This document shows, in pieces, positions 30,443-40,633 of a stretch of 64,000 nt of DNA (positions are counted from its first letter, which is position 1; each line of letters starts with the position of its first letter). The DNA comes from an uncultured Lachnospiraceae bacterium. Lineage in GTDB: Bacteria; Bacillota; Clostridia; Lachnospirales; Lachnospiraceae. The stretch spans positions 4,171-68,170 of the forward strand of contig CAJTLU010000013.1 of the NCBI GenBank assembly GCA_910577175.1. Direction: 5' to 3'. Position numbers and translations under genes: made by a program. The notes below the pieces were generated by a model, which saw only the letters and a list, made by a program, of their open reading frames with translations, did not search any database and was not told the DNA's origin.

Positions 30443-30460
30443 AAGTGAGAGCTCTCACTT
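30443..30460. promoter_or_regulatory. Perfect 18-bp palindrome in the divergent intergenic region
   Basis: aagtgagag|ctctcactt, 113 nt upstream of the XRE-TPR gene. Confidence 0.5.
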
Positions 30461-38313: not shown

Positions 38314-38556
38314 GCCATCCGCCTCCTTAGTCCGGGAAAGTGTCGGCTGAAAGCCTGTATATGGTTTTATTATAGCAGGAAAGCGCGACGGGGGCAAGGA
38401 GTTCTTATAATTTGAGTATTCGCACTTTTTTCGTCATTTTTAGAAGTTGCAAACACAGAATACAACTCGCGGTTGAGCAAGAACTACGCTCAACCGTTGT
38501 TTGCTTTTTCGAAAAAATTCTGTTATCGTAAAAGTATCAAAAAGGAGGTGCATGAG

Positions 38557-39492
38557 ATGAGTTTGGATTTGTTTCAGGAAAGGCTTGCCAACGCCAGAAG
38601 AGAGAAGGGAATGACACAGACGGAGCTGGCAGGAAAGCTTGGCGTAACGGCGCAGGCAGTATCGAAGTGGGAGAGAGGAGGCGCATATCCGGACATTGAG
38701 CTACTGGATGGAATTTCAAGTGTATTGGATTGTTCGCTGGATTATTTGTTCCAGTATGAGCAGGGAGCAAAGTCTTCCGGAAAGCAGGACAGTCTGGTGC
38801 GGCGCGCAGAACTGGAGACACTGATGTTAAAGGACAGTATTGCAATTCTGTTCGGCTACGGTCTGGTGGATTTATTTCTGGAGGAGGGAAAAAATAAATA
38901 TGCTATCCTCCATGAGATGCGCAAGGAGATAGCAGGAAAGTATGGCTTCTGTGTTCCGACAGTGCGCCTGATGGACCAGGCGCTGTGCAAGCCGCAGGAG
39001 TATAAAATTTTGTTTTACGGCAAAGAGGTTGCAAACGGCACAGTAGAGCCGACAAAACGTTTTGTAGTGAACGGAAAGGCAGAAGATGAGGAGGATATTG
39101 CAGTAACTGGACCGGTATGGAATCTCTCCGGCGTCTGGACAGACAAAACGGAGGAAGGCTGCAGCCCGATGCGTTTTATTATGATACATTTAGAGCAATG
39201 TATTATGGAGCATCTGCCGTTGGTTTTTAATTGTCAGATGGCAGCGGACATGGTAGAAAATGTAGGGAAAAAGTACCCGAAGGTGGTGGAAGGCGTTGTT
39301 CCGGAACGGGTTTCCTATTCTTTTTTAAAGCGGGTACTGTTAATCCTTCTTTGCGAAAAGAAGTATGCGGTGAATCATATGGTACGGATTATCGAAGTGC
39401 TGGATGAGATAGTAGACGAGCATCCGACGCCAGAAGAAGCAGCCGGGCGTGTTGCGGCTGCTTTAGGAGAAAGCTATCGTTATGACCGGTAA
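38557..39492 (+). CDS. XRE-HTH fused to a FlhA/FHIPEP-type cytoplasmic (C-terminal) domain, no TM region
   Basis: HTH MTQTELAGKLGVTAQAVSKWE. The C-terminal 230 aa are collinear with FlhA-C (FGYGLVDLF; YGFCVPTVRLMDQALCKPQEYKILFYGKEVANGTV; YPKVVEGVVPERVSYSFLKRVL). SD aaaaaggagg. Confidence 0.7.
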   Translation: MSLDLFQERLANARREKGMTQTELAGKLGVTAQAVSKWERGGAYPDIELLDGISSVLDCSLDYLFQYEQGAKSSGKQDSLVRRAELETLMLKDSIAILFGYGLVDLFLEEGKNKYAILHEMRKEIAGKYGFCVPTVRLMDQALCKPQEYKILFYGKEVANGTVEPTKRFVVNGKAEDEEDIAVTGPVWNLSGVWTDKTEEGCSPMRFIMIHLEQCIMEHLPLVFNCQMAADMVENVGKKYPKVVEGVVPERVSYSFLKRVLLILLCEKKYAVNHMVRIIEVLDEIVDEHPTPEEAAGRVAAALGESYRYDR

Positions 39493-39565
39493 TCAGAATA
39501 CGCACAAAGAATACGGGGCCGCTGCCCTTTGAGCAGCAGCCCCTTTTTACAAGCGTCTCTGGTAT

Positions 39566-40633
39566 TTAATCCCAGATTCCGGCATAATGCGCAATCAACA
39601 ATGCCCGGAACGTGACATCGCATTGTTTGCGGATTTTTGCCCGCCAGTCGGTTTCTAACTGCGCGCCACCGTACGGCCCCCATCCTTTGAACTCGCCGTC
39701 ATACATTTCAACAGAGCAGATTCCGTCCGGATTGATATTGTCAAGTACAAAGTCGACTTCCTCCCTAAGCTCCGGCAAATAAGGATATAAGCCGCAGCGC
39801 GACAGCCATTCGACCTTTTCCAGATTGGTCCGGCGTACTTCGTCGGTTGTATGATGATTCAGGCTGTCCCCGGAGACAGAATAGCCCTCATTTAACAGCC
39901 AGCAGGGACCTACGGCATGATTGCCTACCCAGCATGCGACAGGAGTATTTATGATATCCTCCCGGTCTGTCCGCAGCAGTCTTTGAAAGGATTCGGCAAG
40001 CATAGCGGTATTTTTCTCATTTTTCCATTTCTCTGTCGTAAATGTCAGTATTTCGAGATGATATCTGCATGGCCACCGCTCGTTTTGGTGAAACAGCCGG
40101 CCGTTTTTTACGGGACGGGAGACATCCTGTATCGAATCGACCTGTGTCACTCGTTCGAAGGATTCCAGGGAAAGCCTGATTTGCGGTGAGATGTCGATGA
40201 TATCGTCATAATGGGCTCTTGCAATACAGGCGCATCGGATGATATTCTGACCCTGTGCCGGAATTTCAAATTCGCTCCAGTATTGCCCTCTGGTTCCATA
40301 AATCCAATCGGTTAATGGCGTAGTAACGTAAGCATCCATGGCACGGTCCAAGAGCGCGGTTCCTTTCAGACCCTTTTCGCCCATGTATTTTGTCGCAGTT
40401 TCCTGATTGTCATACTGACCGGCATTTTTGTTGCCTCCATGAAAGCCCAGACCGATCCAGCCGTTTTCCTGTTGCTTTTCTCCGATAAACCGGAGAAGTT
40501 TTTCCTCCAGTATCTGCTCCTGTAATGCTTTTTCTTCCTGCGCTGTAATAGTTTGCAGGATTTCTTTTTTTACCCGCAGCTGAATCGATGGATTTGCATG
40601 GGTCAATAAGAAATCAATCATCTTTTGCTTCAT
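39566..40633 (-). CDS. Hypothetical cytoplasmic protein (355 aa), unrecognised family
   Basis: Clean ORF inside the CAZyme cluster. No signal peptide and no motif I can name. Confidence 0.6.
   Translation of the reverse strand: MKQKMIDFLLTHANPSIQLRVKKEILQTITAQEEKALQEQILEEKLLRFIGEKQQENGWIGLGFHGGNKNAGQYDNQETATKYMGEKGLKGTALLDRAMDAYVTTPLTDWIYGTRGQYWSEFEIPAQGQNIIRCACIARAHYDDIIDISPQIRLSLESFERVTQVDSIQDVSRPVKNGRLFHQNERWPCRYHLEILTFTTEKWKNEKNTAMLAESFQRLLRTDREDIINTPVACWVGNHAVGPCWLLNEGYSVSGDSLNHHTTDEVRRTNLEKVEWLSRCGLYPYLPELREEVDFVLDNINPDGICSVEMYDGEFKGWGPYGGAQLETDWRAKIRKQCDVTFRALLIAHYAGIWD

Follow-up and report, generated by a model that had tools for sequence, protein, structure and literature searches.

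Positions 38557 to 39492 of a 64,000-nucleotide stretch of DNA from an uncultured Lachnospiraceae bacterium (assembly GCA_910577175.1, contig CAJTLU010000013.1; the whole stretch is called the window below) encode a soluble protein in which an N-terminal helix-turn-helix (HTH) domain of the XRE type is joined to part of the cytoplasmic C-terminal domain of FlhA (FlhA-C), the export-gate protein of flagellar type III secretion. This fusion, here named HTH-FlhAc, had been proposed in a first-pass annotation from the letters and their translation alone, and it is confirmed by the profile searches and structural comparisons described below. Among XRE regulators, HTH-FlhAc stands out by a C-terminal module without precedent, and the family of fusions to which it belongs is old, selected, and confined to flagellate Lachnospirales. 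FlhA-C is among the best-studied modules of type III secretion and, to our knowledge, is known only as a part of the membrane gate. A full-text literature search found neither a description of an HTH + FlhA-C fusion nor such a module in a regulator, in agreement with the first-pass annotation, which had been aware of no characterised example.

Domain architecture of HTH-FlhAc

The HTH-FlhAc gene (Table 1) starts with an ATG codon 8 nucleotides downstream of the ribosome-binding site AAAGGAGG; a longer, TTG-initiated frame from position 38473 finds no use in the orthologues, all of which start with MSLDLF. Residues 10-64 of the product match the Pfam family HTH_3 (E 4.2e-16, 59.1 bits against a gathering cut-off of 23), and residues 77-302 match positions 315-551 of the 657 positions of the FHIPEP profile (E 7.4e-28, 97.9 bits against a cut-off of 29.1). 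Positions 1-314 of that profile, which describe the polytopic membrane domain, are unmatched, and the HTH stands at the N terminus instead, which bears out the lack of transmembrane segments noted in the first-pass annotation. The NCBIfam profile of FlhA itself, TIGR01398, is matched over its positions 324-568 (E 1.7e-32), with a score of 112.5 bits that does not reach the equivalog cut-off of 772.1 bits. In a phmmer search of the PDB, residues 81-306 align with residues 349-585 of Salmonella FlhA (E 1e-16); FlhA-C of Bacillus, Helicobacter, and Vibrio is matched as well, and the HTH part matches P22 C2 and SinR.

The AlphaFold2 (AF2) model of HTH-FlhAc, built on 51 relatives, has a mean predicted local distance difference test score (pLDDT) of 89.1 and is disordered only at residues 69-73 (pLDDT below 50). 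Its best matches in a Foldseek search of the PDB are all FlhA-C structures, followed by the SctV proteins of injectisomes, and the top match, 3A5I, superposes with a root-mean-square deviation of 2.6 Å over 228 columns (E 1.7e-14, 25% identity). The closest known structure is thus the cytoplasmic domain of the FlhA/SctV (FHIPEP) family, represented, for example, by Salmonella FlhA-C (3A5I, 6AI0, 6CH1-3). The three blocks that had been aligned with FlhA by eye are also real, and correspond to the D1 strand with the GYXLI motif, to the D1 segment R391...G399..P403..R406..D409, and to the first helices of D3.

Table 1. Features of the HTH-FlhAc gene and of the region upstream of it (window positions; residue numbers of FlhA are those of Salmonella)
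Feature	Position	Strand	Basis or remark
CAAC half-site; with GGTTG at 38471-38475 a small convergent dyad, CAAC-N4-GGTTG	38463-38466	+	Kept in L051 and L052
Perfect inverted repeat CGGTTGAGC-N9-GCTCAACCG, probable operator directly 5' of the -35 hexamer	38470-38496	.	Read from sequence; conserved arms
Third half-site, GTTG, fused to the -35-like hexamer TTTGCT	38496-38505	+	GTTGTTTTACA in most orthologues
-10-like hexamer TATCGT after TGt, 18 nucleotides past the -35 hexamer	38524-38529	+	Comparison of orthologues
Ribosome-binding site AAAGGAGG	38541-38548	+	Read from sequence; MSLDLF start shared by orthologues
Coding sequence of HTH-FlhAc, 311 residues, stop codon included	38557-39492	+	Open reading frame, profile matches, model
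XRE-type HTH, residues 1-68	38557-38760	+	Pfam HTH_3; dN/dS
Flexible inter-domain linker, residues 69-78	38761-38790	+	Low pLDDT at residues 69-73; variable alignment columns
Helix equivalent to the C-terminal part of the FlhA linker (FlhA_L-C, 347-361), residues 79-93	38791-38835	+	phmmer alignment to FlhA 349-361; modelled helix at residues 80-90
D1, first part, residues 94-165 (FlhA 362-434)	38836-39051	+	phmmer, family alignment
D2, residues 166-203 (FlhA 435-483), shorter by about 10 residues	39052-39165	+	Alignments; dN/dS
D1, second part, residues 204-223 (FlhA 484-503)	39166-39225	+	phmmer, alignment
D3, residues 224-304 (FlhA 504-583), with the family signature	39226-39468	+	phmmer, alignment
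GC-rich stem-loop with a 13-bp stem between convergent genes, probable terminator	39515-39543	.	Sequence scan

The source genome (3.14 Mb in 29 contigs) carries an intact flhA, encoding 691 residues, on another contig, along with six genes that have a flagellin N-domain (Flagellin_N); by these genes, the genome is flagellate, a point that the first-pass annotation had proposed to check. Because a separate, complete flhA is present, HTH-FlhAc is not a fragment of it, and an origin by frameshift is rejected as well, given the strength of selection. In comparisons with two orthologues (88-91% identity), the ratio of nonsynonymous to synonymous substitution rates (dN/dS) is 0.07-0.10 overall, with values of 0.01-0.03 for the HTH, 0.05-0.08 for D1, 0.10-0.20 for D2, and 0.11-0.16 for D3, and by this measure purifying selection is seen to act on every domain. 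The frames of the fusions remain intact in relatives down to approximately 30% identity, and hundreds of independent contigs carry the identical architecture, with identical boundaries. Its own ribosome-binding site and a promoter-like region precede the gene, and a strong stem-loop follows it, which, as a probable terminator, suggests that the gene is monocistronic. Against all this, including the high-confidence predicted fold, only the partial nature of the FHIPEP match would speak for an artefact (a fragment, a frameshift product, a mis-assembly of flhA, or a decaying pseudogene), the probability of which is negligible.

Retained parts of FlhA, origin and distribution of the family

In Salmonella FlhA, a linker (residues 328-361) is followed by D1 (362-434 and 484-503), D2 (435-483), D3 (504-583), and D4 (584-682) (PMC5916509). 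HTH-FlhAc shares with FlhA-C the fold made up of the C-terminal linker helix, D1, D2, and D3. Unlike FlhA, it has neither the eight-helix membrane domain nor D4, and is fused to a DNA-binding domain. The chain ends seven residues past the equivalent of D3, where D4 would begin; the same boundary is found in all relatives, and D4 is missing from every member of the family. D1 and D3 are present in all members. In turn, D2 is retained in the clade of HTH-FlhAc itself and in about a third of the clusters of the family, and is deleted in most of it (85% of 34 sampled rows). Even a member that lacks D2 (P0087) is modelled with the FlhA-C fold, at a pLDDT of 91.

Outside the HTH, the invariant or nearly invariant columns of the family are the equivalents of Gly368, Arg391, Gly399, Pro403, Arg/His406, Asp409, Pro521, Pro529, and Glu559, of which Arg391, Gly399, Pro403, Asp409, Pro529, and Glu559 are conserved in HTH-FlhAc as in FlhA. 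The equivalent of Gly368 sits in the GYXLI motif, which reads GYGLV in HTH-FlhAc and is found in the first part of D1 together with Arg122 (Arg391 of FlhA), Gly130, Pro134, Arg137, and Asp140. The arginine corresponding to Arg122 is present in 97-100% of the members. A family-specific signature, YP-x-V-x-GVVPE-x-[IV]SY, opens D3, and the groove positions Phe400, Leu401, and Leu512 remain hydrophobic across the family. In Salmonella, Arg391 is exposed at the surface and pairs with Glu351 of the adjacent linker in a salt bridge between subunits, and the R391A substitution abolishes both ring formation and the hook-to-filament switch, with the domain staying folded (bioRxiv 10.64898/2026.05.20.726703). 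FlhA_L-C binds to D1 and D3 of the adjacent subunit, where the groove comprises Phe400, Leu401, Leu512, Glu508, Gln511, and Arg515, and contacts of the D1-D3 and D3-D3 types hold the ring together (PMC5916509). Since D1 and D3 are universal in the family, D2 is mostly lost, and D4 is always lost, the part kept throughout is the ring-forming and linker-receiving core of FlhA, not its docking platform; in the fusion, this core may make contacts of the same kind.

This outcome divides the interpretation given in the first-pass annotation, that an export-apparatus docking domain had been recruited into a transcription factor. The fusion is genuine, but the docking platform as its recruited part finds no support, because D4 is always absent, D2, to which half of the chaperone-docking dimple belongs, is mostly deleted, and the dimple residues Asp456, Phe459, and Thr490 of Salmonella are replaced by Gly185, Trp188, and Ile210 in HTH-FlhAc. 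In its functional form, this interpretation would make the module a sensor of chaperone-substrate complexes (FliS-flagellin or FlgN-FlgK) that reports a backlog of late substrates to transcription. Such a role would fit the retention of D2 in HTH-FlhAc and in the other clusters that keep it, the purifying selection on this domain, and the multiple flagellins of the genome. It would also fit the residue trends in 14 D2-bearing clusters, with Trp465 in 14 of 14, Pro457 in 13, an acidic residue at position 456 in 11, and an aromatic one at position 459 in 8. Nevertheless, with D2 wholly missing from most of the family, with the dimple altered, and with a competent dimple in FlhA requiring the assembled ring (bioRxiv 10.64898/2026.05.20.726703), we consider it very unlikely.

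The combination of HTH_3 and FHIPEP occurs in approximately 100 clusters at 90% identity, with lengths of 260-330 residues, all of them from Lachnospiraceae or Clostridiales metagenome genomes. Their names in the public records are purely automatic ("FHIPEP family type III secretion protein" or "helix-turn-helix domain-containing protein"). A HMMER search with the FlhA-like part alone against 1.84 billion representative proteins gave 887 matches, the best 150 of which were inspected. Among these 150, an XRE head is present in at least 29 clusters at 50% identity; no other DNA-binding or other soluble architecture of FlhA-C was seen, and the remainder are FlhA or fragments at contig edges. The database entries closest to the HTH are proteins of the XRE-TPR and XRE-methyltransferase types from the same bacteria.

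A first tree, built from the FlhA-like parts, shows the fusion family as one clade on a long stem, with a Shimodaira-Hasegawa-like approximate likelihood-ratio test (SH-aLRT) value of 100. One protein, P0221, stands out. It is encoded by a complete gene on a 1.17-kb JGI metagenome contig (L048 96-1109), and its FlhA-like part, which has the same boundaries, is 47% identical to residues 356-582 of a Lachnospiraceae FlhA, compared with 27% for HTH-FlhAc. It also has an insertion of approximately 30 residues in D1. P0221 is either a very slowly evolving member of the family or a recent re-fusion. The free tree places it with FlhA, which would suggest an independent second origin; however, a constrained tree uniting all fusions, P0221 included, is slightly better, and the approximately unbiased (AU) test does not reject it (p 0.64). 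A single origin from a Lachnospirales flhA, with very uneven rates, is thus the simplest explanation. That the fusion arose from the flhA of flagellate Lachnospirales is well supported, and a single origin is consistent with the data.

The distribution of the fusion, the mapping of which had been proposed in the first-pass annotation, lies within that of flhA. In a sample of 301 Lachnospiraceae genomes, one per genus, a full-length flhA is found in 159, and the other 142 give no match to FHIPEP at all. The fusion is found in 13 of the 159 flhA-bearing genera (the source genome and 12 others) versus none of the 142 flhA-less ones (Fisher p 2e-4). A profile search of 401 genomes of the order added six carriers from four other families, each with a full-length flhA, so that the fusion is represented in five families and flhA accompanies it in 19 of 19 carriers. 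Another genome of the same genus as the source genome (G129) does not have the fusion. Its restriction to genomes with a real flhA is the observation from which a coupling of flagellum assembly to gene control may be suggested.

The upstream dyad and the probable promoter

In the window, the region upstream of HTH-FlhAc has the layout CAAC(38463-66)-N4-GGTTGAGC-N9-GCTCAACC(38471-38495)-GTTG-TTTGCT(-35)-N18-TATCGT(-10). A consensus promoter scan did not list this promoter because of its weak -35 hexamer. The layout common to the orthologues is GGTTGAG - N6 - (C)TCAAC - N5 - GTTGTTTTACA - N17/18 - TATAAT-like, and it is shared even by orthologues of only 30-40% identity whose genomic contexts are unrelated. 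In the orthologues read, the -10-like hexamer is TATAAT, TACAAT, TATGAT, or TATAGT and follows the -35 hexamer by 17-18 nucleotides. In the two close orthologues used for the selection analysis (synonymous divergence, dS, 0.4-1.0), the half-sites and the -10 hexamer are kept, with the spacers and other intergenic DNA diverged; the outer CAAC half-site is likewise kept in the close orthologues L051 and L052 despite the divergence of the DNA around it, and L038 has a similar CAACC-TGA-GGTTG. The pattern GTTGA[GTA]-N15-19-[GA]TTG is present in 13 of 19 orthologue upstream regions versus a mean of 0.08 in shuffled sequences (maximum 2). These features fit a candidate operator, GGTTGAG, through which HTH-FlhAc would be autoregulated.

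The source genome has 11 XRE genes of the SKWE type, and GGTTGA or TCAACC lies at -59 to -99 in four of them, compared with 4.8% of 3207 other open reading frames (ORFs; binomial p 1.4e-3). The C-terminal parts of these four are FlhA-C, a membrane domain, a methyltransferase-like domain (judged by relatives), and that of a 416-residue protein. The three genes other than HTH-FlhAc lie at C2:297064 of the source genome (L054 3060-3092; multi-pass membrane protein), C6 near 66139, and C16 near 18234, one of them encoding a 324-residue methyltransferase-like protein. This enrichment suggests that GGTTGA is an operator type common to the paralogous clade of XRE heads, possibly with cross-talk among its SKWE-type regulators. 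The 18-bp palindrome of the XRE-TPR gene of the window (30443-30460) is unrelated in sequence to the GGTTGAG dyad.

When the strict bipartite pattern was sought with up to two mismatches in 13 whole genomes, eight matches were obtained, six of which are the promoter of the gene itself, and the reversed control gave two. The extra matches are intragenic, one inside a kinase-like ORF of the source genome (G000 C1) and one in another genome (G162 C299). As the motif is nearly confined to the gene's own promoter, no regulon can be derived from it. The flagellin N-domain genes of the source genome show sigma-D-like promoters; those at C10:90034, C12:76441, and C10:70531 are of the TAAA-N15-GCCGATAT type, with long 5' leaders of 150-180 nucleotides.

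Two observations speak against reading the dyad as an operator. In the window, it also folds as a hairpin (-17.4 kcal/mol, z -3.1) that is followed by a T-rich tract, and identical arms form the terminator of rpmE, which encodes L31, in the same genome (G000 C4:178088). In view of this terminator, the alternative that the dyad acts as an RNA hairpin or terminator is kept, with a residual probability. A similar palindrome with 11-bp arms, located 5' of another XRE gene, could in the same manner terminate the gene that precedes it. However, the sequence of the left arm is kept where the right arm is degenerate (L011, L013, L014, L038), no covariation of the arms is seen, the -10 hexamer follows at a fixed distance, and no gene on the same strand ends 5' of the dyad in the window. 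The match between the rpmE terminator and the HTH-FlhAc dyad, which extends to both arms and spacing, is probably due to chance.

The rpmE site had itself been considered as a second operator and was dropped when it proved to be the terminator hairpin, with the exact sequence GGTTGAG-N11-CTCAACC (L053 6089-6113). Between a gene encoding 601 residues and rpmE, two tandem GC-rich units of approximately 100 nucleotides (...ttttttccgtgcaggcatcgcac...ccgcttggtcgcgggc) occupy L053 5850-6030 (G000 C4:177849-178029), and a long perfect hairpin follows them at L053 6027-6060.

Possible coupling to the flagellar export gate

We tentatively favour a reading in which HTH-FlhAc is a one-component regulator of the XRE type that controls its own gene and, through contacts of the export-gate type made by its FlhA-derived D1(-D2)-D3 part, couples DNA binding to the flagellar apparatus. 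The protein, which is probably oligomeric, would bind to the GGTTGAG dyad just 5' of the -35 hexamer of its own sigma-A-type promoter and thereby control its own expression. D1 and D3 would make ring-type contacts between subunits and accept a linker helix in the groove around Arg391, as in FlhA, the protein either self-assembling or docking on the ring or the linker of FlhA. Members that have D2, such as HTH-FlhAc, might additionally dock on chaperone-substrate complexes. In either case, DNA-binding activity would vary with the state of the export gate of the flagellum.

In its general plan, HTH-FlhAc resembles XRE one-component regulators such as SinR, P22 C2, and the RRNPP-like XRE-TPR proteins, being a single soluble polypeptide with an N-terminal HTH_3 domain and with a dyad at its own promoter that suggests autoregulation. 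Unlike other XRE regulators, it has a C-terminal module derived from an export-gate protein of type III secretion. Flagellar regulators known to be coupled to assembly, namely FlgM/sigma-28 and, in Firmicutes, FliW-CsrA-flagellin, act either by secreting an anti-sigma factor or by switching partners on mRNA. The likeness of HTH-FlhAc to these systems is conceptual only, in that its activity might likewise respond to how the export apparatus stands; it is related to them neither in sequence nor in structure and, unlike them, carries a piece of the gate itself. A conserved and selected soluble copy of FlhA-C joined to a DNA-binding domain indicates that the ring core is reusable as a module of a regulator. 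HTH-FlhAc is a candidate for coupling flagellar assembly to transcription in little-studied gut bacteria, the flagellate Lachnospirales, whose flagellins are prominent immune antigens in the gut. Additionally, most members of the family represent a natural minimal FlhA-C, with D1 and D3 only, which could help to separate ring and linker contacts from chaperone docking.

The neighbourhood of the gene is not flagellar. The neighbours listed in the first-pass annotation (GH43, DUF2500, and a hypothetical gene) were found again, together with an esterase gene, and the absence of flagellar genes nearby holds. The window neighbours are a BlaI/BlaR1-like pair, GH43, DUF2500, a 355-residue ORF, the esterase, and an AraC-type gene; the 355-residue ORF is convergent with HTH-FlhAc (39566-40633, minus strand) and matches no Pfam family. 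Orthologues at 67% identity retain the GH43 and esterase neighbours. More distant ones adjoin ilvC and MatE, others an ABC transporter, and another a protein of 2187 residues, whose ORF (L049 6147-12710), with no Pfam match recorded, lies downstream of a D2-less HTH-FlhAc gene. All five kinds of context differ and share no conserved operon partner.

Several observations weigh against a coupling to the export gate. None of the five kinds of context includes a flagellar neighbour, the full bipartite motif is found essentially only at the gene's own promoter among the 13 genomes, and none of the six Flagellin_N genes of the source genome has an operator-like site upstream. The donor-side residues of the linker, Glu351, Trp354, and Asp356, are lost, being replaced by Arg83, Leu86, and Thr88 in HTH-FlhAc, and the conservation of Arg391, Gly399, Pro403, and Asp409 could serve folding alone. 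The tips of the fusions in the tree are approximately 10 times longer than those of FlhA, that is, the fusions evolve approximately 10 times faster. In turn, the co-occurrence statistics ignore phylogeny, and a gene that originated in flagellates might just be prone to loss.

Some of these points would equally favour an exaptation that is independent of the flagellum, in which D1 and D3 serve only as the oligomerisation or small-ligand-sensing part of an ordinary XRE repressor with non-flagellar targets, for example the local carbohydrate genes, and the co-occurrence with flhA is historical. Variable and non-flagellar neighbourhoods, fast divergence of the domain with loss of D2 and D4, and flagellin genes that have no operator-like site would all be expected of such a protein, as would the interchangeable C-terminal domains (TPR, methyltransferase, membrane) borne by the closest relatives of its HTH. 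On the other hand, flhA is present in each of the 19 carriers and the fusion in none of the 142 flhA-less genera of Lachnospiraceae, the invariant Arg391 is a surface residue that acts between subunits of FlhA and not in the fold, and, as the neighbours are not conserved, a role in local regulation is equally unsupported. We regard this exaptation as somewhat unlikely.

We can speculate that the favoured coupling to the export gate takes the more specific form of a flagellar checkpoint, in which the D1-D3 groove around Arg391 lets the regulator bind the linker of the real FlhA, or enter its ring, in one export state (hook- or filament-type), so that it is either retained at the basal body or set free to reach DNA. 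If this were true, transcription would read the state of the gate directly, with no need for a secreted anti-sigma factor; in this specific form, however, the proposal is improbable.

The retained ring and linker-receiving surface, the strict co-occurrence with flhA, and an operator detectable solely at the gene's own promoter are also what would be expected of a decoy or a modulator of assembly. In this case, the soluble FlhA-C core would insert into or cap the FlhA ring, or titrate the linker or FliJ, modulating export post-translationally, and the HTH would be only autoregulatory. Such a function seems highly unlikely, as the HTH is the most constrained part of the protein and the residues of its recognition helix are invariant in the family alignment, which is more than autoregulation seems to need.

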